Of a stretch of 14,111 nt of DNA, positions 1 through 14,111 are shown in pieces. How positions within the stretch are numbered: the stretch's first letter is position 1; each line of letters starts with the position of its first letter. Made by a program: the position numbers and the translations under genes. The stretch covers positions 1 through 14,111 of the forward strand of contig CAYWJO010000066.1 of assembly GCA_964458565.1 (NCBI GenBank), written 5' to 3'. The stretch comes from an uncultured archaeon. Its GTDB lineage: Archaea > Asgardarchaeota > Thorarchaeia > Thorarchaeales > Thorarchaeaceae. The notes beneath the pieces are model-generated. The model made no database searches. It saw nothing but the letters and a program-made list of their open reading frames with translations, and was not told where the DNA came from.

Positions 1-90
1 ATTAGCTTCTGTAAGTTATGTTTTCACTTTCTATTTCTGTTTTGAATCATAAACTTTCAATCTCCATAATGTGGAATTAGCTTCTGTAAG
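1..90 (-). CRISPR. CRISPR array 1 (leader-proximal end; continues beyond left edge)
   Basis: Full 37-nt repeat at 54-90 (minus strand CTTACAGAAGCTAATTCCACATTATGGAGATTGAAAG) and an identical partial copy at 1-15, separated by a 38-nt spacer (16-53). The repeat has a TTCCA/TGGAG hairpin followed by the 8-nt tail ATTGAAAG, which fixes the minus orientation. Confidence 0.93.
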
Positions 91-253
91 TGGCCGAAAA
101 ACCACCTATTCTAGATGGTTAGAATCACCATAAGGCTGCTTTTTAGTATTGGTTTGTGGGAGTCATAATTCTGCACAACTCCTTATAAGGATGTACGCAA
201 TAAATCTTTTTTGAGGTCTATAACGACCAATTATCCCAGAGGGTGGGTATTGG
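91..253 (-). promoter_or_regulatory. Leader of array 1 / divergent intergenic region shared with cas1
   Basis: Non-coding, adjacent to the first repeat. The minus strand of 91-200 aligns without gaps to leader 2 (13866-13975). Contains the TATA-like palindrome TCCTTATAAGGA (180-191). Confidence 0.85.
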
Positions 254-1276
254 ATGCATACTATCATCTTAGAGGATTTTGGAACGTTCTTGGGTAAGAA
301 AGGCGACCGATTCGTCGTCAAGCAGAAGGGAAAGACACTTGGTGAGTTTCCGGTGTCACAGGTAGAGCGAATAATAATCTCCTCCTCCGGTTCCTCGTTG
401 AGTTCATCTGCCATCTACCTAGCAGTTGAGAACAGGATTCCCATAGCATTCACCTATACAGATGGGACCCCGTTTGGTTTCCTGACACCAACTCGTGGAC
501 ATGGTACTGTCCTCACTCGCAGAGCACAATATCTCCATGCAGCTTCGCCCTATGCAACACATCTTTCGAAGGGGTTCATAGATGGGAAGACAATGAACCA
601 GCGAAATCTACTGAATATGTGGGCAAAGAGTCGGACACGAACCAGTCCTGAAATTGCAAAACATCTCTATAATCTCTCATATGAGGTAGATACTATTCGG
701 AATGAGTTGGATCTAGTAGAAGGGTCGATGAACGTTGAAAAAAGGCAGAACTTGATGAATATTGAAGGGAGGATTGCAGCCCACTACTGGGAGGGTGTAG
801 GGCTTGTCATACCTAACTCCTTTGAATTCACAACAAGAAACACAAGAGGTGCAGTTGATCCCTTCAATATGCTTCTCAACTACGGTTATGGAATACTCTA
901 TTCAGAAGTGTGGTCTGCTGTGAGCACTGCTGGTCTTGACCCCTTTGCTGGTTTCCTCCATGTTGACAGACCTGGTCGTCCCTCACTGGTGCTTGACTTG
1001 ATAGAGGAGTTCAGACAACAGGTCGTCGATAGAATAATTGTTCGACTCACAATACAAAAGACGATAAAGCCCTCTGGAATTGTCGTGTCACAGGAGCTTA
1101 CCAAAGATGCGCGTTCAACCTTGGCATCAACTGTCATTGAACGACTTGCGCAGAAGGTGGATTATGAAGCTAAAAAGATATCTATCAAGAACATCATCGT
1201 GAGACAAGCCTGGGCCATTGCCAGGTATCTTAAGGACGAAACAAATCAATACAAGCCGTTCTATCAGAGGTGGTGA
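254..1276 (+). CDS. cas1: CRISPR-associated integrase Cas1
   Basis: 340 aa. N-terminal beta domain (GTFLGKKGDRFVV...FPVSQVERIII) and catalytic-region motifs NIEG, DPFNMLLNYGY, GLDPFAGFLH and SLVLDLIEEFR. Confidence 0.98.
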   Translation: MHTIILEDFGTFLGKKGDRFVVKQKGKTLGEFPVSQVERIIISSSGSSLSSSAIYLAVENRIPIAFTYTDGTPFGFLTPTRGHGTVLTRRAQYLHAASPYATHLSKGFIDGKTMNQRNLLNMWAKSRTRTSPEIAKHLYNLSYEVDTIRNELDLVEGSMNVEKRQNLMNIEGRIAAHYWEGVGLVIPNSFEFTTRNTRGAVDPFNMLLNYGYGILYSEVWSAVSTAGLDPFAGFLHVDRPGRPSLVLDLIEEFRQQVVDRIIVRLTIQKTIKPSGIVVSQELTKDARSTLASTVIERLAQKVDYEAKKISIKNIIVRQAWAIARYLKDETNQYKPFYQRW

Positions 1277-1572
1277 TGTTCTTGCACTGGCTGGTTGTCT
1301 ATGATATCACGGATGATAATCTCAGAGGGAAGGTTAGTGAACGCCTGAAAGACTACGGTCTAGAACGTATCCAGTATAGCGCATTTCTAGGGGAACTCCC
1401 CCGTTACTCATTGGCGTCTTTGAAAACTGACATGCGACGTTTGTTGAACGATGGTGAGGAAACAGACTCGATCATAATCTTTCCGCTGTGTAGCTCATGT
1501 TTCAAGAACCGAATTGTGATTGGGGAAGAACGGGAGATGGAGCGCGATGAACAAAAGGTCACGATATTCTAA
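1276..1572 (+). CDS. cas2: CRISPR-associated protein Cas2
   Basis: Motifs LVVYDITDD and LKDYGLERIQYSAF, plus C-terminal PLCSSC. The ATG at 1276 overlaps the cas1 stop (TGATG) and follows GAGGTG. The ORF track's GTG at 1270 is an alternative start. Confidence 0.97.
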   Translation: MFLHWLVVYDITDDNLRGKVSERLKDYGLERIQYSAFLGELPRYSLASLKTDMRRLLNDGEETDSIIIFPLCSSCFKNRIVIGEEREMERDEQKVTIF

Positions 1573-2185
1573 AATCACGGATGTTGAGGAGCAATACCTC
1601 ACTCCCACGGATATCAAGCAGTATGTTTTTTGTCCGCGTGTCACTTTCTTCAATAGAGTGATGAACCTGAAACCAGTGATGGGCTCGCAACAGGAGGCTG
1701 GACAGAAGACTCATGACCGATTATCACATCTCGAGAAGAAACGGCTCAGTGTTCTGAAAGCAGGTCTTGAACTGCAGGTTGAAACGAAGATGTTCGACAT
1801 TCCAGTTGTATCACACAACTTGGGAGTGCGTGGTAGATTGGACATGCTCTTGGTCACCTCTCAGAATGAGTATATCCCTGTGGAGTTCAAGGAGATGCGG
1901 AGTAACAAGGGGCAGGTTCGTCTGGACCATAAGTACCAACTAACCCTCTTGGGTCTAATGGTCGAAAATGCTTACGATACAATCGTGCGACGGGGGATTG
2001 TCCATTACACGCTGGAGGAGTTGACTATCGAGAAAGGTATCACAATGTCAATGAAGACTCGAACCAAGTCATATGTTGAACGAATCAACAGGATGATTGA
2101 GGATGGGTCGTTACCTTCACCTCGAGCACAATGCAGATTCGATCGCGTTGGATGTGGGTATGCCAATCAATGTGCTGACTTCTAG
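1547..2185 (+). CDS. cas4: CRISPR-associated exonuclease Cas4
   Basis: QYVFCPR (first Fe-S cysteine), RecB-like GRLD...PVEFK...QL, and three C-terminal cysteines. The ATG at 1547 follows GGAG. The ORF track extends to a TTG at 1520. Confidence 0.95.
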   Translation: MNKRSRYSKITDVEEQYLTPTDIKQYVFCPRVTFFNRVMNLKPVMGSQQEAGQKTHDRLSHLEKKRLSVLKAGLELQVETKMFDIPVVSHNLGVRGRLDMLLVTSQNEYIPVEFKEMRSNKGQVRLDHKYQLTLLGLMVENAYDTIVRRGIVHYTLEELTIEKGITMSMKTRTKSYVERINRMIEDGSLPSPRAQCRFDRVGCGYANQCADF

Positions 2186-2300
2186 TACGAACTCCCTATC
2201 AATTTACAGTCTTTTGTTTAAACAACATACTCTCACGTTCACCGAACTGTATTTGGGACACCCCTAGAATGCACTTCTGGTTTATCTCGTGGGTATACAC

Positions 2301-2340
2301 CAGTTTCAGATGTGATATATATAGTACAATTACGAAACTG
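2301..2340 (+). promoter_or_regulatory. Putative effector-operon promoter: TATA box flanked by an inverted repeat
   Basis: TATATATA at 2316-2323, about 45 nt upstream of the cas10d ATG, bracketed by CAGTTTC (2301-2307) and GAAACTG (2334-2340). Confidence 0.55.
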
Positions 2341-2368
2341 TGTTTGAGCACAGAATAGCGAATAATCA

Positions 2369-5020
2369 ATGAACGTGATTGAAGTGTTTAAGATAGACAT
2401 TGAAGAAGTTATGGACCAGTTAGAAGATGTCTTTGTAAGTATTGCTCTAAAAAGGGACTGGCATCATAAATATGCAAAGTTCGGGAAACAGACGCAATCG
2501 CTCTTTGTGCATTCAATGAACGCATTCTCCATCACTCGTGTGATTGGTAGACCCATGTTTGATCTAGACGATGATGAATTGCTTATTGCATGTACAGCAT
2601 CATTTCTTCACGACTATCAGAAAGCATACGACTCTTGGCAGGACGCAGCCCTTGCATTCATGGCTGGGCAAAGGCCAAAGAAGACTGTCTTCAGACATGA
2701 TTCAGGTATGGAGGAAGATTTGGAACATCTAAAGGGAATATTGACTGAAGTATCTGATAACCTTACATTTGATTATGATTTGGAACAACACGCCGCCCGT
2801 ATCCTCAATATGATTGTATACACTCATGATACTGAGAACAGGGCAGATGTGACTAGGAGGAAACGTATGGTTGGGTCTATTGACCCTCTTACACGAGTGG
2901 TTAGACTTGCAGATAGCATTGCAAGTATCAAGACCCTTGAGGACATCAAAAATAAGGAAAAGGATCCAGACATACCACCTGAAAAGAAGGTGTCCTTTGA
3001 CTATCACCAGATTTCTGTAGTGAGGGGTGTTGTTTCATGCTTTCTCAACGAGGCTATCGTGGAATTGATGAAAGAAGCTGGATACGTTCCACTCCTATTC
3101 TTTGGAAACGGAGCAACTTATCTTCGTGTTGGTGATGGTGTTCAAATTGATAATCCTAGAGAGAAAATACAGGACTTGATTGACAATCAATTCAGAGAGT
3201 TCAAGAATTCTAGTGTTTATTTGCAGGGAATGGCAAATGCTGTCATTGGTCCATTGACCCAGATGAAATGGCCTAGTATCCATCTGGTCAGAGAGCAGGA
3301 CGTACCTGATCTGGTCAGATACATTGCATCAATGCCTGCTACAAACAAGAAGACTGCTTTTGGAGATGGATATTATGAGGAACAGAGTAAGAAGAGTGAT
3401 GATTACAGGCAGGCCATGGATGACTTTGTCACACAGACTGGATCAACATCTCGTTCTGTGATACTAGCAGAGATGATATCTGACTTCAACATTCTTGTCT
3501 ATGTTTTCGACTTCATCAAGAGCTACAGAAAGCTGGTCGAAGATAACGAAACTGGTTCGAAATTCGAGAACGATGTAAATGAGTGGTTCCGTTCATCATC
3601 ACTGGGTGAATTCACATTTGATGGAATTAGTAGTATAACTCACACGTCTCCTGTTCATGATAGGGTGTCTATGGTAACCATACTTTGGAAGATAGGAGAT
3701 GAAAATCTACACACTTCAAAGGACCGACAGAAGACGATTGTGAATCGATGTATCAAACTCATGACTAACATAGTTAGAGAGTATGTAAAATATGCGCCTC
3801 GTGGTATCAGTGAGATTGTTAGTCAGCAACTTATTTCAGAGGTCCACTATATACCCGGAGAATTAGATTTGGTAGAAAAACTACGAGATCACTCAACTTC
3901 TATGTATATTAGATACTCAGATGGTAAGCAAGCGTCCAAACGTATTTGTGGTCTTTGTGGGTTACCAAGCTTTCACGAAGCACCTGCTGGATTGTTTGGG
4001 GACGGGTCAGAGAAGTTCTCTAACTTCATCCCGGGTGGTATTGAGATTGGTGGGACACGAAAGGCACAGGTCTGTCAATTATGTATGTTTGAAGCAACAT
4101 TACGAGGGTTCTACTTTCCCTCTGCTCCGTTTGGTACGTTCTTCCTTCTACCAGATATGTCGTTATCACCTTCTGTACTCCGATTGTGGTCAAATGCTAT
4201 CAATAATACCATCCGCTCAGAACAACTCGGTTTAGGACTTGGTAAGGTCTGGAATATGCTCGATGTCTACAAGCTTATAGCTAATGGTGAATCACTTGAT
4301 ACATCATCAAATCTGTTCAAGTATATCCGTCCAACGACGAATGAACTGAAAGACTTGGTAAGTTTCCTCTCAAATATGAGAGAAAACCCAAAAGATGTTG
4401 ATTTTGAAAATCCTGACAATCTGGATATTGAACATTCATTTGAGGAGATTGCACGATCTCATTTTCAAGGACTAGTAAGGATAGATCCTTATCTAATGAA
4501 GGAATATGTCCCAAGGACTGTTGTTCAGAGGTCATCACTCCTCACATCCAGCTATGCAATCACATTTCTAAGAAACGCTCCGAAAGATGATCCAAAAGAA
4601 GCCTCAAGCACCAGCGCTCTCAGAACATACCTTCTTGCTTTGATACTATCTGAGATATTTCATGCGAGAGTAGTATTTGTTGAGGGATATCAACCACTTG
4701 AGCAGTTTGAGGTAAAAGGAAGAGTCAATGTACAAATGCCAGGACCTGCAGAGAATGCATTACGAAATCAAGGAATTAACATGACAGTCGAGATTCATAA
4801 GGTTAAAGGCGTACTTCGTATACTGACATCGCATATGCTGATTTCAATGGGGGCTGTGAAAAACCTTGGAAAGGATAGACTTCTGCGACTTATGGCGATG
4901 AATAGAGGCGCAATTCTTCGTCGTGCTCAGATGGAACATGAGAGAAATCTCCCATCGTATTTGAAATTTGAACTATTGCATCTACTAGACAACCTGCCAC
5001 CAAAGGCAGGTGAATTATGA
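2369..5020 (+). CDS. cas10d: Type I-D large subunit Cas10d/Csc3 with N-terminal HD nuclease domain
   Basis: 883 aa. Cas3''-type HD motifs QSLFVH, FLHDYQK, YTH and VRLADSIAS; degenerate palm segment PLLFFGNGATYL; zinc finger CGLC...CQLC. Lies upstream of csc2, csc1 and cas3'. No GGDD motif. Confidence 0.92.
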   Translation: MNVIEVFKIDIEEVMDQLEDVFVSIALKRDWHHKYAKFGKQTQSLFVHSMNAFSITRVIGRPMFDLDDDELLIACTASFLHDYQKAYDSWQDAALAFMAGQRPKKTVFRHDSGMEEDLEHLKGILTEVSDNLTFDYDLEQHAARILNMIVYTHDTENRADVTRRKRMVGSIDPLTRVVRLADSIASIKTLEDIKNKEKDPDIPPEKKVSFDYHQISVVRGVVSCFLNEAIVELMKEAGYVPLLFFGNGATYLRVGDGVQIDNPREKIQDLIDNQFREFKNSSVYLQGMANAVIGPLTQMKWPSIHLVREQDVPDLVRYIASMPATNKKTAFGDGYYEEQSKKSDDYRQAMDDFVTQTGSTSRSVILAEMISDFNILVYVFDFIKSYRKLVEDNETGSKFENDVNEWFRSSSLGEFTFDGISSITHTSPVHDRVSMVTILWKIGDENLHTSKDRQKTIVNRCIKLMTNIVREYVKYAPRGISEIVSQQLISEVHYIPGELDLVEKLRDHSTSMYIRYSDGKQASKRICGLCGLPSFHEAPAGLFGDGSEKFSNFIPGGIEIGGTRKAQVCQLCMFEATLRGFYFPSAPFGTFFLLPDMSLSPSVLRLWSNAINNTIRSEQLGLGLGKVWNMLDVYKLIANGESLDTSSNLFKYIRPTTNELKDLVSFLSNMRENPKDVDFENPDNLDIEHSFEEIARSHFQGLVRIDPYLMKEYVPRTVVQRSSLLTSSYAITFLRNAPKDDPKEASSTSALRTYLLALILSEIFHARVVFVEGYQPLEQFEVKGRVNVQMPGPAENALRNQGINMTVEIHKVKGVLRILTSHMLISMGAVKNLGKDRLLRLMAMNRGAILRRAQMEHERNLPSYLKFELLHLLDNLPPKAGEL

Positions 5021-5041
5021 TCATCATTGAGGTGATATGAA

Positions 5042-5638
5042 TTGGTAATCCGAATGGAAAAAGAAGAAGAAAAATCAACTATCGAAGAGATTCGCAAAGT
5101 GCGGTCCGAGGCGGCAAAAGCACTCATTGCGTATCTTGACACATATCGGCCATCACAGGATCCCGGTGACTCGAAACACGCACTCATGGGTCCTGTTGGT
5201 AAGCTCCTCGTTCGAATAACCACGACAGGTGAAATAAACTGGGAAGCGACAAAGGGGTACGTTCTTAGTATCCACAAGAACCAACAGGCTCCTCGTGGAG
5301 TGACTCCTGATGCGGCAGAGCGTCTTGATGAAGCCATGAAGACCTTGAGTGAACTCAGAGATTTCCTTCCTCCCACAAAGTGGCTTAAGACTGTAGAGGA
5401 CCTCGATGATGAGGTGTTCTTTGGTCTGTTCAAGGATAAACTTGTGGGACAACGTAAGGGAATCCAGAAGAAATTCCATGAGTGGTTGAAAGCTAACTAC
5501 TCCATAGAGGAGATTAACAAACTCATTCCTCTGGAGGAGAATCAGTACGAATCGATTATGGCAATCGAAGATCCGTTTTCAGTTCGTCCAGAACTTGCTG
5601 ATTTGGTCAAGAGATTCTGGGAGGAGAGGAATAAGTAA
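5042..5638 (+). CDS. cas11: Stand-alone Cas11d-like small subunit with C-terminal extension
   Basis: 198 aa, helical-looking, between cas10d and csc2. It has its own RBS (GAGGTGA, 5029-5035) and TTG start. The segment Y-x8-SKHALMGPVGKLL resembles the S-x-H-A-[IL]-x-x-P segment I recall from the Cas11d region of cyanobacterial Cas10d. Confidence 0.72.
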   Translation: MVIRMEKEEEKSTIEEIRKVRSEAAKALIAYLDTYRPSQDPGDSKHALMGPVGKLLVRITTTGEINWEATKGYVLSIHKNQQAPRGVTPDAAERLDEAMKTLSELRDFLPPTKWLKTVEDLDDEVFFGLFKDKLVGQRKGIQKKFHEWLKANYSIEEINKLIPLEENQYESIMAIEDPFSVRPELADLVKRFWEERNK

Positions 5639-5653
5639 AGGGAGTGATAGAAA

Positions 5654-6592
5654 ATGGTAAGTCCAACAATTCCAAAGAGTTTTGCGAAGATAAGTGACTA
5701 TTTTGCAGAGAAGATATCTCCACTACTTGACTCAAGGGTTGTTCAAATCCTTCTCGTCAGGCAGACACATGACTATACGATATTAAGAACAGAAGAGAGT
5801 AGAGAGCTGAACACAGTGGTGATACCCGAGAGCATCGAGTCCAGCAAACCAACCGTTAAAGTAGCATTTCTGGCATCCAAACAGAAGGCTGTTGAGAGTC
5901 GAATGGCAGCTAAAATGCTGAGATCTGTGAGAGATGACTATGAATGTCGTCTGATGTTGAACCTATGTATGGAATGCCCGCGCTGTGCGCTCTTCGGAGC
6001 AGTCAATGTTTCAGGTGGACGAGAATATAACATCAAGCACAGGATTGAGTACTCCACTGGCTTCTCGATAGAGCGTTATGAAGACCTTCTGGAAACTATC
6101 ACGTTCAATGCTATCGATGATGCGAACCAGACCACTGGTCAGGCGCTGGGTATGACACATAATGTTCGACCATTAGCCACCTTCCCATGTGTCGTATCAT
6201 TGAATTCAGTAACTTGGCAGGAGCTCGTTCTCTATCTCAAGGCACTGATGGCATCTAAGTCATATGGTGCTGAAACCCGGGTAAAGGGTGATGTCAGGAA
6301 CACCATACTTGGTATCATCGCGGGTCATGAAGAAGTAATAACATCGCTTGAATACTCACTAGAGCTTGCTACTCGCTTTGAGGAGGACCTTCATGATGTC
6401 ACTGAAGAAATCCTGAAGAAGTACAAACAAATCAGTGCCTCCCGCTCTGATGTTGTAGTCCTCTCAGTAGAAGAGGTAAAACAACTGGTGAGTGATGTCC
6501 AAGACCTTTCAATCAGCAAGGAACTAACTGACACGATGTGGAAACAGGTTGAAGCATTTGTCAAGACTGCTAAAGCGACGAAGAAGAAATGA
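5654..6592 (+). CDS. csc2: Type I-D backbone subunit Cas7/Csc2
   Basis: 312 aa. Motifs VRQTHDYTILRTE, SKQKAVESR, Zn-site C-x6-CMECPRCALFG, TFNAID and YGAETRVKG. RBS GGAGTGA upstream. Confidence 0.93.
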   Translation: MVSPTIPKSFAKISDYFAEKISPLLDSRVVQILLVRQTHDYTILRTEESRELNTVVIPESIESSKPTVKVAFLASKQKAVESRMAAKMLRSVRDDYECRLMLNLCMECPRCALFGAVNVSGGREYNIKHRIEYSTGFSIERYEDLLETITFNAIDDANQTTGQALGMTHNVRPLATFPCVVSLNSVTWQELVLYLKALMASKSYGAETRVKGDVRNTILGIIAGHEEVITSLEYSLELATRFEEDLHDVTEEILKKYKQISASRSDVVVLSVEEVKQLVSDVQDLSISKELTDTMWKQVEAFVKTAKATKKK

Positions 6593-6619
6593 GTTGAAAA
6601 GACAAGAGGTTTGATTATT

Positions 6620-7357
6620 ATGGATTGCAATCTTGTTCATCTTACCTCTCATGATTTCTTCTTCTATGCCTCCCAGGACTATGGGGCATCTGCCCGTCCT
6701 GTGGGGTTGATAGGGAATTATGCTTTGATGTATGGCCTAAATCGATATACACCTAACGTCAGGAGAACAATCTCGTCAGGAAACAAACCTCACTATGATG
6801 AGGACCTACCAAGAATGTCTGTCTATGCAACACCAGCTGCTCCTACAAGCGATTTCTCAATAGATTGCCGTCCCAGAATTGGTGCGGATCGAATTAGCTT
6901 CGAGTCAGACTTGATACTAACTGAATTAACTTGGAACAGCACAGGATCATCTCTCTTGTGGACAATGCCAAAAGAGAAGATTAACATCCCCAAAACCGGT
7001 TCGTATCATAAATTCATCCCACTCACCACGTTTTACTTCTATACGGTAGGTGGAAAGCTCCCTGGAATCCTGCGCGTTGGAAAGAAGTACACCTCCGCAC
7101 GTCTTGAGATGATTCCCTTGGAGGTAGAGATGAAGGAGGGACGGTTTGTAGCAACATGTCCAGTTAATCTGATTGATCTCCCCGAAGAAACCGAGATACT
7201 ATCCGGCAGCTTGGTGAAGGTTCCACCTGCACCTCTCTTGTTGGATGCTGAACTCAAGGGGCGATATGTACAAGGGACTGATTTAGCTGGCGGAACGCAT
7301 CGATTTCCTGTACCAGATCAAGAACGATTCAAGAGCTCTTGGAATCAAGAGATGTGA
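6620..7357 (+). CDS. csc1: Type I-D Cas5/Csc1
   Basis: Motifs HDFFFYAS, IGNYALMYGL, YATPA, LPGILRVGKK and PVNLIDLP. The ATG at 6620 follows GAGGT. The ORF track starts at a TTG at 6611. Confidence 0.9.
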   Translation: MDCNLVHLTSHDFFFYASQDYGASARPVGLIGNYALMYGLNRYTPNVRRTISSGNKPHYDEDLPRMSVYATPAAPTSDFSIDCRPRIGADRISFESDLILTELTWNSTGSSLLWTMPKEKINIPKTGSYHKFIPLTTFYFYTVGGKLPGILRVGKKYTSARLEMIPLEVEMKEGRFVATCPVNLIDLPEETEILSGSLVKVPPAPLLLDAELKGRYVQGTDLAGGTHRFPVPDQERFKSSWNQEM

Positions 7358-9456
7358 TAGGTGTGGATGAGTCATTAGAGGTAGTCATAGGTGAGTCTTA
7401 CCTTGAGTACTCAGATGAAACCATATCTCCTGATTTCCATCTCTATAGACACCAAGCAGACACAGTTCATGCTGACAGGAGCGTTGTCGTTCTAGATGCT
7501 CCGACCGGAGCTGGAAAGACTCTGTCTGCATTGAAACGTGTCGTTGATAATAATACTCCTGCTATCTTCATCTACCCTACAAACGCACTAGTTCGAAACC
7601 AAGTCATCGCAATCACGGAACTGCTAGAAAAACAGTTGGGGAAAAAGGTGAATGTGATTGGATCGGATTCCGATATCAAGACTGTCACCTCCAACATGAA
7701 AAATACTGATGTGGAGCTGTTCCATTTGACTGGCGAGAGTCTTGAGGAATTAGCTGAAACTCAATCTACTGCGAAGGGAAAGATTCTCGATGCGTTATTG
7801 ACTGGAACTCATGTCGCAGGTCGAATGAGAATTCTCCTGACGAATCCTGATACCCTCTATCTTGCCTTCATTGGTCGATACATGAGATCAGGAAGAATAT
7901 GTGCACAGTTCGAAACTTTCAACACCCTAGTCCTCGATGAGTTTCATCTCTATTCAGGACCTATGTTGGCACGAATTATCTTCATGGTCAATGCCTCTCG
8001 TGTTTCAGATGAGGTCCCCATGATGGACCTCATTTTTCTGAGTGCAACGCACGGGGATATTCTTGACCTGCTCAAGAATACATACTCAGATCTCCAAATT
8101 ATAAAGGCAACACCTCTTGCTAAGTGTCCTCAGAAGGGACGTATGATAAGACATCGGACTCATTGTCATGTGAACACAATTACAGGTGTGCTTTCCACTG
8201 ACGATGAAGCTAAGGATGTAGCCACCAATCTTCTACAGTTCTATAATACTGACAGCAAGGCTGACAATGTCAAAGTGCTTGGCATCTTCTCCTCAGTTTC
8301 GTTTGCCGTGCGTGTTGTCAAGTCACTCCGTTCAATGATTCAGGGATGCGGACTCAATCCAAATGAAGTGGTCTACCAATTACATGGACTGGTTCCACAT
8401 AAGGTACGTTCTGGTCTTGTTGGGATGAAGAATGCCATTCTTGTTGGAACCTCTGCAATCGAGGTCGGAATAGACTTCAATGTGCCATACCTTGTCATGG
8501 AGGCTCACGATATTGGAAGCTTTCTCCAGAGATTTGGACGTGGTGGAAGGCATCAGGATTGCGAGGCTGCCCTCTATGTTCCAAGAGTTCTTGCAGATAG
8601 GCTCAACTCAAAGAATGAATGGGAATTTCCTGATTTCATCGATGAGGTTCATAAAGCACTTGTCGAACTCCCGTCCTACGCAGGGTTTCTCTGCAATTCA
8701 AAGATTCAGGAGATTCTGTGTGGAATGGCACTTGCAGCCAGTAGGCTACCATGGTCGCCTTATCACAAATCGGAGCGGTTCGATTATGATGCGGCTGTGG
8801 AGTTCTACTACGAGCTTGTACAGGCAAATGAAACTGTGTCAATAGGTGACAAGACCCTGAAAGAGGTTTTAGGTGATCAGGAGCCCGGGCTTGTACGTCA
8901 TTGTTTGAAGAACCGGGCAGTACAGACTATGGTGAAACACGGCTTTCTCAGGGGTGCTTCCAATACAGTCTTGGTAAAATATCCTGGACACCTATTTGGT
9001 ATCACAACTGACATCTTCAGCGAGTGTGATTTCTTCGAACTGTTCAGGATGCAAGGTAAAATCAAGACTGCTGAGGATTATTGGAGGAGTATTCCCCTCC
9101 AATTCAAGAGAAGGCTTACCAAGGAGACCCCTCTTTTTGTTGTGGAGGACCTGGGTCAACCAAGGTATCCAACTGTCTATCTTGCCTCAGATGCTTTTGT
9201 AAGAAACAGAACTGGAGTTTACAACGAACCTGATTGCCACCTCAAGTTCCGAGATCGATATCTATCCACCATAGGTCAAAAACTCCTCAGTGGGCGAAAT
9301 CTGGCCTTTCACTGGAAATCTATGACTCGTTATACTGACTATCGGATTCCAAAGGTCTTCGTAGAGAATGAGCCTGGTGGTCTAGTTATAGGCGAGTGGG
9401 CCTATGTTGCTGAATACCTTTTACAAAAACAGATGCAGGAGGACACCAGAGGATGA
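7339..9456 (+). CDS. cas3: Type I-D Cas3' SF2 helicase (no HD domain)
   Basis: Motifs APTGAGKT, YPTNAL, LTNPD, DEFH, SAT, GTSAIEVGIDF and QRFGRGGR. No HD domain, as expected when the HD is fused to Cas10d. The true start may be the GTG at 7354 or 7363. Confidence 0.96.
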   Translation: MESRDVIGVDESLEVVIGESYLEYSDETISPDFHLYRHQADTVHADRSVVVLDAPTGAGKTLSALKRVVDNNTPAIFIYPTNALVRNQVIAITELLEKQLGKKVNVIGSDSDIKTVTSNMKNTDVELFHLTGESLEELAETQSTAKGKILDALLTGTHVAGRMRILLTNPDTLYLAFIGRYMRSGRICAQFETFNTLVLDEFHLYSGPMLARIIFMVNASRVSDEVPMMDLIFLSATHGDILDLLKNTYSDLQIIKATPLAKCPQKGRMIRHRTHCHVNTITGVLSTDDEAKDVATNLLQFYNTDSKADNVKVLGIFSSVSFAVRVVKSLRSMIQGCGLNPNEVVYQLHGLVPHKVRSGLVGMKNAILVGTSAIEVGIDFNVPYLVMEAHDIGSFLQRFGRGGRHQDCEAALYVPRVLADRLNSKNEWEFPDFIDEVHKALVELPSYAGFLCNSKIQEILCGMALAASRLPWSPYHKSERFDYDAAVEFYYELVQANETVSIGDKTLKEVLGDQEPGLVRHCLKNRAVQTMVKHGFLRGASNTVLVKYPGHLFGITTDIFSECDFFELFRMQGKIKTAEDYWRSIPLQFKRRLTKETPLFVVEDLGQPRYPTVYLASDAFVRNRTGVYNEPDCHLKFRDRYLSTIGQKLLSGRNLAFHWKSMTRYTDYRIPKVFVENEPGGLVIGEWAYVAEYLLQKQMQEDTRG

Positions 9457-10268
9457 TTACACTACGTTTCCATCTGACAAGTCCGTTTTCAGGCACAATG
9501 GGATTCACTGGTGTACCACTAAGAGCCGCCTTTCTGAACTTGCTCCAACAGTATGACTCTCAATTGAGTGGTCAGGTACATGGAAAGGTAGGAGTACGCT
9601 CCTACTCACTTGATCCCTTTCCCTTCTCGGCCGGGTTCAGAACAGACTTTGATGAGGGCAAAGAGTATGAGTTTGGTGTGAATCTGTTTTCTAGTGAGAA
9701 GTACAACTCATTAATTCGGTCATTGGCCATGGTTCCCAAGGAAGAGGTGCGAATCCATCATCACTACTTCCCTCTAAAACGTGTTGACTTCACAACTCAT
9801 CAACCATCAATGCTGATGGACCAGTGGATTGAGAAGGATTGTTTGGAGGGATTAAGGCAGATTGGAATCCGAATGAGATTTCTTACCCCAACTCAGCTTT
9901 CTCAGTTTGGTAGTGATATGGCTTTCTTACTTCCTACTCCTGAGAAAGTCTTCTCTGGACTACTTAGGGTCTGGAACACTGCAGACAGGGCTTCAAAGGT
10001 CTACCATATCAGTGACTACAGAAAATGGGTTGAGCGGAATATCTACATCTCTAATCATCGGATTCGTACAATCCCAGTACCTCTCGGTCGTGGAAGGGCT
10101 GTAGTTGGATTTGTCGGCAGTGTTGACTATGTCGTACAGAATCTCGATAGCCCTTTTGGGCATTTATCAGTGGGTCTATCAAGATTCGCAGAGATGTCTA
10201 ATGTAGGAAAGAATCGCACAGCTGGTCTTGGAAAGGTTTCTGTGCTGCTAGAAACAGAGAAGGGGTGA
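9453..10268 (+). CDS. cas6: crRNA-processing endoribonuclease Cas6
   Basis: 271 aa. FLTPT, LPTPEKVFSGL, GFVG and the C-terminal glycine-rich loop VGKNRTAGLGKV. ATGA overlap with the cas3' stop. Confidence 0.95.
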   Translation: MITLRFHLTSPFSGTMGFTGVPLRAAFLNLLQQYDSQLSGQVHGKVGVRSYSLDPFPFSAGFRTDFDEGKEYEFGVNLFSSEKYNSLIRSLAMVPKEEVRIHHHYFPLKRVDFTTHQPSMLMDQWIEKDCLEGLRQIGIRMRFLTPTQLSQFGSDMAFLLPTPEKVFSGLLRVWNTADRASKVYHISDYRKWVERNIYISNHRIRTIPVPLGRGRAVVGFVGSVDYVVQNLDSPFGHLSVGLSRFAEMSNVGKNRTAGLGKVSVLLETEKG

Positions 10269-10280
10269 CAATGACTGTGA

Positions 10281-11237
10281 ATGGAGGGGTGTATGTTGTA
10301 CATTCTACCTGATGACGTCAAGCGAAGACTCCTGAGAAGGTACAGACGGCGATCACGAGAGATTGTGGTGGACGATCGCTTTCGTGGTTGGGCCTGGGAG
10401 GTTCCACCTCTGGATCCACCCTACGATTTTCATCTCTCTCTGAGTGAGATTACTGGTCGATACTGTGAGTCTATGCGCGACCTCTATCTCAGACATGTTG
10501 AGAAAAAACGAAAGCCAGTCAATATCAAGATGATTGTAGGAGGTCTTTATCATGCAATCATTGCATCTGTGATAGAGCATTCAAAGAAAACACTCTACAC
10601 GATAGGCAAGAATTCAATCGGTGAGTTTGGAATGTGTATGACCGATCTCAGGGATGAAATAATCAATGGTCTTATGGAAGGTGCTCGAAAACCAGAGGTG
10701 ATCACATCAACTTCTGTTAATATAGCAACAGTTCAGAACAACATGCTTTGGTTATGGGACTATGAGGTCAACCAGATAGTCGCCTCGATTGAACGTGTTG
10801 TGTCATCTCAACCATACATCGGTTTGGACTCGCTAGTTCACAATGCAATACCGATTGTTGTAGAGCAGAAGCTTGATGGTCGAAACCTAGGACTCAGTGG
10901 TTATTTGAGTGCAGATGCCTTTGGAGCTGAGGGCGTAGTTCTTGATATGAAGACTGGCGAACGACGACGTTTCCACCGACTAGCCACAACTGGATATGCA
11001 TTGGTCATTGAAAGTATTCACGAGTATCCAGTTGACATTGGCTGTATCGTCTATTGCTGGTTCAGGGAGAATGCTCTTCCTTCTATCGAGTACGATGTCC
11101 ATCAGATTGATGAACCTCTCCGGCAGGACTTCATCGAGCTGCGGGATACTGCGATGAAACTGATTTATGATGAGAAAGACCCTGGTCTCCCTTCGAAGTG
11201 TTACGAGGACTGCCCCTATTGGAACGAGTGTCACTAA
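10281..11237 (+). CDS. csa1: Cas4-like protein Csa1 (family usually associated with type I-A)
   Basis: Family signature RGWAWEVPPLDPP, YCESMRDLYL, LDGRNLGLSGYLSADA, DMKTG, GYALVIES and C-terminal C-x3-CPY-x3-C. The start may be the ATG at 10293, after GGAGGGGTG. Confidence 0.9.
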   Translation: MEGCMLYILPDDVKRRLLRRYRRRSREIVVDDRFRGWAWEVPPLDPPYDFHLSLSEITGRYCESMRDLYLRHVEKKRKPVNIKMIVGGLYHAIIASVIEHSKKTLYTIGKNSIGEFGMCMTDLRDEIINGLMEGARKPEVITSTSVNIATVQNNMLWLWDYEVNQIVASIERVVSSQPYIGLDSLVHNAIPIVVEQKLDGRNLGLSGYLSADAFGAEGVVLDMKTGERRRFHRLATTGYALVIESIHEYPVDIGCIVYCWFRENALPSIEYDVHQIDEPLRQDFIELRDTAMKLIYDEKDPGLPSKCYEDCPYWNECH

Positions 11238-11241
11238 GAAT

Positions 11242-11311
11242 AAAAAAGAGGAGAGTGTATCCCATTCTCTTAGAAATGGTCGCCGCCATCTCAGAGAGGA
11301 GATACACCCCC
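11242..11311 (-). terminator. Long minus-strand RNA hairpin followed by a U6 tract (terminator or 3' end of an unannotated RNA)
   Basis: The minus strand folds as GGGGGUGUAUCUC/GGGAUACACUCUC (13 bp), UCUCU/AGAGA and GAGAUGG/CCAUUUC with loop CGGCGA, followed by CUCUUUUUU. Four G-U pairs would be A-C mismatches on the plus strand. Confidence 0.55.
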
Positions 11312-11465
11312 ACGAATTATACTAGGCATCCTCAGGTCATGTTGATTGAGTCACCATGGCCATTCGGGCTCTTCCGGTGGACCACTCTTGTACACCATTT
11401 TTCATCGAGAATGAGTAGGAACAAGACACACAAGAGACAATGAGAAGAAAGTCCCACTTTGATTT

Positions 11466-11517
11466 TGCAAGTTGCATCCTGAATAGAAATGTTGCATTTC
11501 TAAACGAAACATAAAAG
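11466..11517 (+). promoter_or_regulatory. Palindromic operator(s) plus BRE/TATA-like element upstream of the csa3-like gene
   Basis: TGCAAgTTGCA (11466-11476) and TAGAAATGttgCATTTCTA (11484-11502), followed by CGAAA-CATAAAAG about 30 nt before the ATG at 11542, which has no obvious RBS (leaderless-type spacing). Confidence 0.55.
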
Positions 11518-11541
11518 GGCATCTATGCTTAATGGAATCCT

Positions 11542-12213
11542 ATGAGTAAAAAGATAGTCCAAATCGCAACGTTGGGAATCTACGCTAATGAACGTGTCCG
11601 GTATGTTAGCTTGAAACGACAAGCTGATGAGATAGTGCTTCTATATTCACCAGAGAATAAGGAGCAGATGGAGGAAATAGTGAGACTGTATAAGCAGGAT
11701 CGTCTGCCAATTGAGGTGGTTTGTGTGAAAGCATGGAAGTATGAATCTATATTGGCAGAGATTCTCGAATTAATCGTCAAGAAACAGAAGAAGAATCACA
11801 TATTTGAGTTCAACATATCTTGTGGAACGACTCCAATGCGAGTAGCATGCCATATGGCAGCAGTCCTTACTCATTCTCAGGTACACTTTGTAAGTGAAAA
11901 GGATGGAGATTTGGTTGGAGAATTGGAAACAGCACAACCCCTCTCATTCTCACAGTTGACGACTCCAAAGAAGAATATCTTGATGCATCTTGTGGATGAG
12001 GGTGGTTGCATTAAGTCACAGCGTGAACTTGGGTCTCGGGTGAACCTACATGCATCTTCAATTTCACGTCATGTGAAGGACCTTATGAAGTTCGGATATC
12101 TCACAACAATCACAAAAAGCGGGAAAAATATGATTCAAATCACTGATTTGGGTCGTGCAATCATTAGACTCAAGCAAGTACGGACTAAGATGAAAGAAGA
12201 AACCTTGAGTTGA
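11542..12213 (+). CDS. csa3: CARF + winged-HTH transcriptional regulator (Csa3-like)
   Basis: 223 aa. CARF Rossmann pattern IATLG...ADEIVLLYS...FNISCGTTPMRVACHMAA, and C-terminal wHTH (SQRELGSRVNLHASSISRHVKDLMKFGYL...IQITDLG). Confidence 0.82.
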   Translation: MSKKIVQIATLGIYANERVRYVSLKRQADEIVLLYSPENKEQMEEIVRLYKQDRLPIEVVCVKAWKYESILAEILELIVKKQKKNHIFEFNISCGTTPMRVACHMAAVLTHSQVHFVSEKDGDLVGELETAQPLSFSQLTTPKKNILMHLVDEGGCIKSQRELGSRVNLHASSISRHVKDLMKFGYLTTITKSGKNMIQITDLGRAIIRLKQVRTKMKEETLS

Positions 12214-12219
12214 TGAATA

Positions 12220-13827
12220 TTGTCAAATCAGAGTGAGATTCTATACTTCGTGCAGAAGACTTGGGAGCAGGCTCTTGAACGATTGCGGCAGTTTGGTGTA
12301 AAGATAGATAGAAATTGTCCCATTCACTCATTCACAGTTGAAGAAGAATGTGACCCTTTCAATGCAAGAATAGTGGATGGTTCTTTGTATATCAACAAAG
12401 AGTGCATCAAGAATCAATATCTGCTCTCAGGAGCAGTTGCTCGTGAATGCTTCAAATCGGTCTTTCCATCCAATAGAATCTGTGAGGAGTGTGTTGATGA
12501 TATTGCTACCGAATTTGCGAGGCAAACTCTTGAGGAAGGGAAACGTGATGAATGGGTGGAGCTTTGGAGGAGACACACTCCCTCTAGACATGTGATCGGT
12601 GTTCTTCATCACGATCCATCAAAATCATACCCTGCACTCTACAAGCTCGTGAGCACTCGAGGGCTCCAATCAATAGTGAATGATCTCTTAGCAACATCAA
12701 AATACCAGATACATCTTTCGCTGGAGGACTATCTCGAATACTTTGAAACACGCTACCAACGATTCTCAGCTGAATTGAGTAGAACAGAGCTTCGCATCGT
12801 TAACTACCTCCTCCGCGACCCGACAACGACCACTGATGACATTGCACAATATCTCGCCCTTTCTCCACAATGGGTTTCAACAGAAGTCACCGAGCTTCAG
12901 AAACGATACATCCTTCGAAAATTCGAGGTGGTCCGTTTCTCAAAGATTGGTATCAGGATGTTCCATCTATTGATAGGAACAGATAACCCTAATGAGTCAT
13001 CTCTGAACCTTCTAGACAAGTGTCCATTTGTCTATGGGATGAGACGGGTACTCTCAGGTCCATGGCAATTGCTTGCAACACTCACTATACCGGATAATCA
13101 AGAAAGTATTAGAGCAGTGGATGAGTTTATGAAAACAGTCAATCGATGGGATTTTCAGACCGTACTTACCGAGGTGGTTTCATCGGGTATACACTACTGC
13201 TTTGACTACTATTCTGTTGATACAGCTGGATGGGATATTCCTTGGGATCTTGAGCGAATTCAGGTTAGAAAAATCTATACTGATTCCCTCTCATCAGCCT
13301 TTCCAAGAATCGACCACCCTCGTGAGGGAATGCGTCTTGAGTTTGATGATCTGGATATGAAAATTCTTGACAGGGTATGGAACAGAGTGGGGTCTGTGGC
13401 AAAAATACGAAAGGAATTGCACGTCGGACAGGAGCGAGTAGCAACTAAATTACGACTATTGAGGGAAGAGGGAATTGTCAATGAGCAGTGGGAGATTCAC
13501 AACATCGGTCTTACAGAGAGCATTGCTTTATTCACATCAGATGTTGAGATTGGGAAAGCCATTGCCGCTTGGGCAAATCGACTTCCAAAGAGTATAGTTT
13601 CATTCGATCTCGATAATCAACTCATGATGATATCATCAGTCCCAGTCGGTGGCGGTTATGGGATGGGATGGGCGTTGGAGAGTCTATCGAAAGCTGTATC
13701 GGCCAATCTTCTGGGACCACCAATATACGGTCGATGGGGATTTCCTTTACATCTCTGGCGTTCAGATAGTCAGAGATGGACATTTCCTGATCAGCAAGTT
13801 GCTGAATGGTTCGAATCATTCCGATGA
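12220..13827 (+). CDS. Multi-domain putative regulator: uncharacterised N-terminal domain plus two tandem Lrp/AsnC-like (wHTH + RAM-like) modules
   Basis: 535 aa. Module 1: LSRTELRIVNYLLRDP...DIAQYLALSPQWV...FSKIGI...CPFVYGMRRVLSGPWQLL. Module 2: FDDLDMKILD...KIRKELHVGQERVATKLRLLREEGIV...NIGL. TTG start 6 nt after the csa3 stop. Confidence 0.7.
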   Translation: MSNQSEILYFVQKTWEQALERLRQFGVKIDRNCPIHSFTVEEECDPFNARIVDGSLYINKECIKNQYLLSGAVARECFKSVFPSNRICEECVDDIATEFARQTLEEGKRDEWVELWRRHTPSRHVIGVLHHDPSKSYPALYKLVSTRGLQSIVNDLLATSKYQIHLSLEDYLEYFETRYQRFSAELSRTELRIVNYLLRDPTTTTDDIAQYLALSPQWVSTEVTELQKRYILRKFEVVRFSKIGIRMFHLLIGTDNPNESSLNLLDKCPFVYGMRRVLSGPWQLLATLTIPDNQESIRAVDEFMKTVNRWDFQTVLTEVVSSGIHYCFDYYSVDTAGWDIPWDLERIQVRKIYTDSLSSAFPRIDHPREGMRLEFDDLDMKILDRVWNRVGSVAKIRKELHVGQERVATKLRLLREEGIVNEQWEIHNIGLTESIALFTSDVEIGKAIAAWANRLPKSIVSFDLDNQLMMISSVPVGGGYGMGWALESLSKAVSANLLGPPIYGRWGFPLHLWRSDSQRWTFPDQQVAEWFESFR

Positions 13828-13975
13828 TAGTTTATTAGAATTATTAACAACCACAAATTTCCTATTTGCGTACATCTTTATAAGAGACCTTTCAGAATTG
13901 TCATGTACACAACAACCACTACAAAATCAGGGTTATGAACACTGATTTTTGGAATTCCAGGTGATTTTGGCCCGT
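13828..13975 (+). promoter_or_regulatory. Leader of array 2
   Basis: AT-rich, non-coding, adjacent to the first repeat. TTGCGTACATCTTTATAAG (13866-13884) matches leader 1 at 18 of 19 positions, at the same distance from the repeat. Confidence 0.85.
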
Positions 13976-14111
13976 GTCGCACATGAAGATTCCACATTAT
14001 GGAGATTGAAAGCGTGTTGTCAATCGTTCGCCTTACCTCCTAACCGTGCTACTAGGTCGCACATGAAGATTCCACATTATGGAGATTGAAAGTAGGATGA
14101 ACTATGATGAC
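13976..14111 (+). CRISPR. CRISPR array 2 (leader-proximal end; continues beyond right edge)
   Basis: Two identical 37-nt repeats GTCGCACATGAAGATTCCACATTATGGAGATTGAAAG at 13976-14012 and 14056-14092, a 43-nt spacer at 14013-14055, and a partial spacer at 14093-14111. Confidence 0.96.

Follow-up and report, generated by a model that had tools for sequence, protein, structure and literature searches.

In CRISPR-Cas systems of type I-D, reviews and primary papers place the small subunit Cas11d inside cas10d, from which it is made by internal translation, and state that this arrangement is conserved across the subtype. In Synechocystis sp. PCC 6803, for example, Cas11d starts at M830 of the 975-residue Cas10d and is required for the binding of double-stranded DNA (McBride et al. 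2020 bioRxiv). The Synechocystis complex has the composition Cas10d1:Cas7d7:Cas5d1:Cas11d2, with the C-terminus of Cas10d forming the first unit of the minor filament. In the fused forms of Sulfolobus islandicus (6THH/6YES) and of some Thorarchaeota, the large subunit ends in a Cas11d domain and no separate gene lies between cas10d and csc2. Here we analyze a 14,111-nucleotide (nt) stretch of archaeal DNA (contig CAYWJO010000066.1; hereafter, the window), one whole contig of an Asgard (Thorarchaeota-like) genome bin, whose open reading frames (ORFs) and Pfam/NCBIfam matches define a complete type I-D locus. Its gene order and subtype are those of the fused systems, with an ORF for a 198-residue protein standing between cas10d and csc2, the gene for Cas7d.

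We conclude, with a probability of roughly 0.9, that this ORF (5042-5638) is a genuine Cas11d gene in its own right, and that it belongs to a large type I-D lineage whose cas10d stops at the Cas10d/Cas11d domain boundary and whose cas11d forms its own cistron between cas10d and cas7d. Separate cistrons for the large and small subunits likewise occur in type III (Csm2/Cmr5), type I-A (Csa5) and type I-E (Cse2) systems. In the literature that we searched, we found no mention of a stand-alone type I-D cas11 gene.

Fold and family of the 198-residue protein

An AlphaFold2 model of the protein, computed with an alignment of its family (A1, 59 homologues) as input, is all-helical and has a predicted local distance difference test score (pLDDT) of 95.5. 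When this model was compared exhaustively with 48,161 representative PDB chains using VIA-align, the top-ranked match was Synechocystis Cas11d itself (7sba_J; Z 8.7, root-mean-square deviation 3.8 over 120 aligned residues, model residues 14-141 against chain residues 1-146). The Cas11d domain of Synechocystis Cas10d (7sbb_I 826-975, Z 8.0) ranked second and the C-terminal domain of S. islandicus Cas10d (6thh_C 681-844, Z 7.9) third, with the Cas11-like parts of Cmr2, Csm1 and Cas7-11 at lower ranks. By comparison with these Cas11d structures, the model contains the Cas11 helical bundle. At the sequence level, the PADLOC profile PDLC01194 (‘Cas11d; CAS-I-D; effector_SS’, 202 positions) matches residues 8-194 of 198 with an E-value of 3.9e-19. 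Within the family that this profile describes, the Thorarchaeota branch is a remote member, as the window protein scores 68 bits and the homologue from Pelotomaculum propionicicum 321 bits (1.3e-96). Moreover, hhalign aligns the A1 family profile with residues 762-877 of a fused Thorarchaeota Cas10d of 886 residues (locus L043; probability 97%, E 1e-10), the conserved motif included, making the C-terminal ~120 residues of the fused protein homologous to window Cas11d. A first-pass annotation of this DNA, made from its letters alone, had called the ORF Cas11d-like, as both fold and profile now bear out. It had singled out the sequence SKHALMGP, and this choice also has substance: SKHALMGP aligns with SSHAILLPLSKAL of cyanobacterial Cas11d and with GSSMHSILGPINAL of the fused Thorarchaeota Cas10d, and four residues in and just after it (K45, G50, P51 and K54) are nearly invariant among the 59 homologues, in which the motif reads SKHxxMGPVGK.

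The Cas11d of Synechocystis (residues 830-975 of Cas10d) and that of the window thus share a helical-bundle fold, an S-x-H...P...K motif close to where helix 2 begins and a coding position directly upstream of cas7d in the type I-D operon; by analogy, their role in the minor filament is presumed to be the same. In contrast to its Synechocystis counterpart, window Cas11d has its own gene, Shine-Dalgarno sequence and TTG start codon, carries an additional C-terminal tail of ~65 residues, and retains ~15% sequence identity. Similarity to the small subunits of other CRISPR-Cas types is fainter. The Cas11-like parts of type III and Cas7-11 proteins are among the weaker fold matches, and the small subunits of types III, I-A and I-E give no sequence or profile match to the window protein, whose best matches are to type I-D Cas11d. 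For type III in particular, there is no Pfam match to Csm2 or Cmr5, and the only fold matches are weak (8bmw_C, probability 0.35 in Foldseek; 9x25_B and 6ifk_A, Z 7.0 and 5.7 in VIA-align).

Several results weigh against the assignment as Cas11d. For a helical bundle, a Z of 8.7 is a modest value, and the alignment tool warns that values of this kind can reflect a common arrangement. Foldseek found no match in the PDB at E ≤ 0.001, with Cas10d chains appearing only at probabilities of 0.57-0.77, and Pfam and NCBIfam recognize no Cas family in the 198-residue protein or its 59 homologues, where a C-terminal tail resembling GH42 enzymes accounts for the only matches. Direct sequence similarity to Synechocystis Cas11d is marginal. 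For example, hhalign places the family on a profile of cyanobacterial Cas10d C-termini at the same motif with a marginal score (E 7.6e-4, probability 25%), and its alignment with the single Synechocystis Cas10d sequence is insignificant (probability 2.5%), though it lands on the right motif; no Cas11 came up when PDB sequences were searched with phmmer and with the profile. For helical bundles, Z values in this range do not decide the matter. What does is the identity of the three top-ranking chains, taken together with the position of the gene.

A helical accessory protein unrelated to Cas11 function, such as a regulator, an adaptor or a domesticated glycosidase fragment, would also account for the lack of any Pfam or NCBIfam match, for the tail resembling GH42 enzymes and for a middling structural Z, which helical bundles can reach by chance; the locus would then be a type I-D variant without a small subunit. 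We consider this improbable. The three best structural matches are type I-D Cas11d and Cas11d domains and span the whole 146-residue chain, a curated Cas11d profile agrees with them, as does the homology in sequence with the C-terminal part of a fused Cas10d, and the place of the gene within the effector operon is fixed. The part resembling GH42, moreover, is a helical segment of only ~65 residues that includes neither the TIM barrel nor catalytic residues and is missing in the short homologues.

The assignment as Cas11d has its complement in the large subunit. An AlphaFold2 model of the 883-residue Cas10d (pLDDT 86.3) aligns with Synechocystis Cas10d over model residues 8-878 and chain residues 14-825 in one structure (7sbb_I, Z 20.8) and over model residues 8-882 and chain residues 14-827 in another (7sba_I, Z 18.4, 673 residues). 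Because the model ends at Synechocystis residue 827 and Synechocystis Cas11d starts at M830, the gene boundary coincides with the domain boundary and window Cas10d, unlike that of Synechocystis, keeps no Cas11 domain. The same follows from an hhalign comparison in which the Cas11d family profile showed no similarity to the profile of the split-type Cas10d family. These results agree with the first-pass annotation, which had seen cas10d stop without a recognizable Cas11d segment. The best PADLOC match of window Cas10d is to a short Cas10d profile (PDLC01192, 847 positions, 6.7e-34). Close, non-truncated homologues are mostly 876-891 residues long (two have 940 and 947), those with a named source coming from Thorarchaeota, and the end point is shared by Cas10d homologues at 18-77% identity, whose lengths are 865-895 residues.

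Gene boundary and spread of the split layout

Window cas11d is in the frame of cas10d (5042 - 2369 = 2673 = 3 x 891) and lies 21 nt behind it, with the GAGGTGA at 5029-5035 placed 6 nt upstream of the TTG at 5042. Use of this TTG is backed by homologues that also begin with (M)[VI]IRME, one of which (locus L012) has ATG at this position. Internal in-frame translation from within cas10d is not the case here: the small subunit has a separate ORF behind two stop codons and its own Shine-Dalgarno sequence. The difference from characterized systems concerns the mode of expression and not the protein family. The first-pass annotation had described the common frame, the two TGA codons and the dedicated ribosome-binding site, all of which can be read directly from the sequence, and every coordinate that it gave holds (cas10d stop 5018-5020, second TGA 5033, GAGGTGA, the ORF and the motif at 5171-5194).

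At 28 homologous junctions, the frame of the small gene relative to cas10d is +2 in 20, +1 in three and the same in five. The +2 junctions typically have an ATGA, GTGA or TTGA start/stop overlap behind a GGAGGTG Shine-Dalgarno sequence, and stop codons across the 28 include TAA and TAG. As the small gene is in another frame at 23 of the 28, the frame shared in the window is incidental and read-through is not a conserved feature. This bears on the idea that both in-frame TGA codons are read through or recoded, producing a Cas10d-Cas11d fusion alongside free Cas11d and mimicking the two canonical products. The shared frame, the short spacer and the use of TGA for both stops would suit such a scheme, and four other loci share the frame, but the frames and stop codons elsewhere speak against it and nothing else in the operon needs TGA to be reassigned; no recoding signal was seen, and none was sought. 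We therefore hold read-through to be very unlikely.

A HMMER scan of 1.84 billion cluster representatives with the family of the 198-residue protein (E ≤ 1e-3) matched 62, all of them free-standing proteins of 103-250 residues except for one unrelated protein of 2330 residues with short matching stretches (E 2.4e-4); none of the related representatives lies inside a long Cas10d. Two size classes are apparent in the A1 alignment, one of ~145 residues and one of ~200-220 residues with a C-terminal extension, and the short archaeal homologues (~140-150 residues) correspond to the helical-bundle core alone. Given these 62 representatives and the conserved place of the gene between cas10d and csc2, the ORF did not arise by chance. 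The order cas10d, small gene, csc2 holds in 34 of 34 genome loci, and in five metagenome loci with Cas10d identities down to 18-22%. The genome survey covered one genome per species using one peptide pattern from a 13-sequence subset, and its 34 loci are a lower bound. Where intact, Cas10d in these loci has 865-895 residues (a few copies are broken or cut by a contig end); csc1 comes next wherever the contig reaches, usually followed by cas3'. Archaeal sources are Promethearchaeota/Thorarchaeota, Thermofilaceae, Thermoproteales, Nitrososphaerota, Bathyarchaeia, Methanosarcinales and Marsarchaeota. Eight or more bacterial phyla are represented, the bacterial sources being Bacillota (including the cultured Pelotomaculum propionicicum MGP), Acidobacteriota, Thermodesulfobacteriota, Melainabacteria, Binatia, Actinomycetota, Nitrospira and Spirochaetes. 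Among 400 Asgard species genomes, 21 carry csc2, with 13 split, five fused Cas10d-Cas11d and three divergent loci. In Thermoproteota, csc2 is found in 18 of 401 genomes: three have the split seen in the window, eight another small ORF, six a long upstream ORF that we read as fused, and one a broken copy.

Those eight small ORFs of Thermoproteota (L055, L057, L059-L062, L064 and L065) encode 143-187 residues and lie behind the large-subunit gene, ahead of csc2. For one of them, there is a match to a second stand-alone PADLOC profile (PDLC01499, ‘Cas11d; CAS-I-D; effector_SS’; E 5.8e-22). Six form a single family with no PADLOC match and a weak similarity to A1 (hhalign E 3e-4) centered on an S-x-H...TKEVR motif. 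Probably, the eight are further, partly uncatalogued, families of free-standing Cas11d. Genomes of the window's own taxonomic family also carry a second, fused type I-D variant (L043:6322-8982, minus strand, and L044-L046), with a Cas10d of ~873-895 residues whose last ~120 are the Cas11d domain and with csc2 following directly.

Regarding the evolution of the two layouts, a Cas7d tree of 51 loci (quick IQ-TREE, unrooted, with long branches, to be read with care) puts all 32 split loci of the window type on one side of a well-supported branch (SH-like approximate likelihood ratio test 99). This clan contains a bacterial branch and a Thorarchaeota branch that includes the window, both with the long form of the small protein, and a mixed archaeal branch with the short form; its placement beside the fused Thorarchaeota clade is weakly supported (80). 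The split or fused state changes four times on the tree, and at least three of these changes are forced by well-supported branches. As read from these sequences, the split is old, common to both domains and without a unique origin within type I-D. The first-pass annotation had offered gene fission and a pre-fusion state as alternative origins, which cannot be told apart on an unrooted tree. It had also held that a single sequencing error could not explain the split, and the survey loci and junction frames mark a true gene boundary. A once-fused cas10d-cas11d gene that had undergone a recent local fission or a pseudogenizing break, or had been misassembled or missequenced, would fit the shared frame and the 21-nt distance, but is scarcely credible in view of the two stops and dedicated Shine-Dalgarno sequence, the common end point of distant Cas10d homologues, the separate small gene in every one of the 34 species loci (in another frame at most junctions), and the single well-supported clan of archaeal and bacterial split loci.

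The window locus is, then, an ordinary member of an under-described lineage, with a split layout that is common in archaea and bacteria. Of the earlier proposal that this is a type I-D variant with an uncoupled small subunit, the free-standing Cas11d stands, by fold and by profile, and the novelty falls: the split was found in all 34 genome loci recovered and in 13 of the 21 Asgard type I-D loci, and it is represented in PADLOC by PDLC01194 and PDLC01499. PADLOC-DB v2.0.0 (2023) holds these two stand-alone ‘CAS-I-D; effector_SS’ profiles as well as short Cas10d profiles, so the family is already catalogued; for the stand-alone Cas11d profile, we found no source publication in the literature searched. 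At NCBI, the Pelotomaculum Cas11d, the two named archaeal homologues that we looked up and the Pelotomaculum Cas10d are all called ‘hypothetical protein’. In the cultured P. propionicicum MGP (L037:2386-5615, RefSeq), this annotation gap affects the short Cas10d (WP_134212666.1) and the stand-alone Cas11d (WP_134212667.1).

There are several implications. First, a broad lineage, comprising the majority of the Asgard type I-D loci sampled and many bacterial ones, encodes Cas11d in a separate gene. Second, heterologous reconstitution of these complexes needs no engineered internal start site. Third, evolutionary models that derive type I from type III with fusion as one single step must account for the split lineage. 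The view of Cas11d function is unchanged, and the advance is descriptive, since the family is already in a curated profile set.

Proposed minor filament and the C-terminal tail

We propose that cas11d is translated from its own Shine-Dalgarno sequence (GAGGTGA) and TTG within a cas10d-cas11d-cas7d-cas5d-cas3' operon, such that an ordinary coupled cistron, and not an internal start, would govern its expression. By analogy with Synechocystis, several copies of Cas11d would line the belly of Cascade as a minor filament and stabilize the R-loop and non-target strand. As no Cas11 domain is joined covalently to Cas10d, it would be a free Cas11d that takes the site adjoining the large subunit, and the minor filament would be made up of free Cas11d alone. 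About three free copies are thus predicted for a complex as long as that of Synechocystis, compared with two plus the C-terminal domain of Cas10d in Synechocystis.

The C-terminal tail of window Cas11d (~65 residues, ~130-198) is kept in the bacterial and Thorarchaeota branches and missing in the short archaeal forms. Its resemblance to GH42 enzymes is seen in comparisons of the family profile with GH42 chains (best 3.7e-4, 9ta3_A residues 160-223), in Pfam Glyco_hydro_42 matches to 13 of the 59 members (best 2.9e-5; the window's own protein has none) and in VIA-align comparisons of residues 130-198 with 1kwk_A, 5xb7_A and 3tts_A (Z 5.7-6.2, 17-25% identity). The match is confined to a helical segment of ~60 residues, with no TIM barrel or catalytic residues, and falls short of a GH42 catalytic domain at the Pfam cut-off. 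As a speculative guess, Cas11d may use the tail to dock onto Cas10d or a neighboring Cas11d. A wider model, tentative and in our view doubtful as a whole, is that the minor filament of split type I-D Cascade consists entirely of free Cas11d, with the tail serving as a docking module in place of the covalent link between Cas10d and Cas11d and thereby setting filament nucleation and copy number, and that split and fused forms have been interconverted several times. Neither tail docking nor repeated interconversion is described in the literature searched. If the model were true, type I-D would be a natural experiment on the control of small-subunit stoichiometry.

Locus layout and related proteins

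The window has the full type I-D gene set: a Cas10d with an N-terminal HD (Cas3'') domain, Csc2 (Cas7d), Csc1 (Cas5d) and a separate Cas3' helicase (Table 1). The TIGR03174 match to the N-terminal part of Cas10d, at 57.7 bits, is slightly below the 60-bit cut-off.

Table 1 Features of the window (positions 1 to 14,111)
Feature	Positions	Strand	Evidence or remark
Adaptation genes cas1-cas2-cas4	254-2185	+	
cas1	254-1276	+	Cas1 match 1.7e-75 (Pfam/NCBIfam)
cas2	1270-1572	+	Cas2 match 6.3e-18 (Pfam/NCBIfam)
cas4	1520-2185	+	TIGR00372 7.6e-23
cas10d (883 aa)	2369-5020	+	HD (Cas3'') and Cas10-like core, no Cas11d domain; TIGR03174 N-terminal match
cas10d/cas11d junction	5018-5035	+	TGA 5018-5020, TGA 5033-5035, Shine-Dalgarno GAGGTGA 5029-5035; read from sequence
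cas11d, free-standing small-subunit gene (198 aa, TTG start)	5042-5638	+	
Cas11d helical-bundle core (residues 14-141)	5081-5464	+	Range aligned to Cas11d 1-146 and Cas10d 826-975
SKHALMGP motif (residues 44-51)	5171-5194	+	Family consensus SKHxxMGPVGK
C-terminal helical tail of Cas11d (residues ~130-198)	5429-5635	+	Resembles helical segment of GH42 beta-galactosidase
csc2/cas7d	5654-6592	+	Pfam Csc2 1.8e-42; also TIGR03157
csc1/cas5d	6611-7357	+	TIGR03159 2.9e-24
cas3' helicase	7339-9456	+	TIGR03158 4.8e-44
cas6	9453-10268	+	Pfam CRISPR_Cas6 1.7e-16
csa1	10281-11237	+	Pfam Csa1 1.3e-76
Two winged-helix proteins downstream of csa1	11542-12213, 12220-13827	+	
CRISPR repeats (37 nt, two copies, 43-nt spacer)	13976-14012, 14056-14092	+	Contig 3' end
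Copy of the 3' 24 nt of the CRISPR repeat	54-77	-	Contig 5' end

Outside type I-D loci, a paralogue of the Cas11d family of ~140 residues is encoded at L047:8796-9218 (minus strand) and L048:8374-8790 (plus strand); hhalign relates it to the family with a probability of 96.9% (E 1.9e-10), and the SKHxxMG motif is missing. Weak matches resembling this paralogue are present in about 14 Asgard genomes, mostly of genera g8, g11 and g12 of the window's family. Its neighbors at L047 and L048 are conserved and of a housekeeping kind (an M50 protease, a TtuA-like PP-loop ATPase, a nucleotidyltransferase, a radical SAM protein, an eRF1/Pelota-like protein and eIF2-gamma), and no cas gene is among the adjoining ORFs scanned. 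The paralogue may be a Cas11d-like protein recruited outside CRISPR-Cas.

With copies of the CRISPR repeat at both contig ends and on opposite strands, arrays seem to flank the window locus on both sides. The first of the two winged-helix proteins (11542-12213) has an N-terminal domain of the HFX_2341-like/CARF-like type and a MarR-type helix-turn-helix, and is probably a regulator of the locus of the Csa3 kind.

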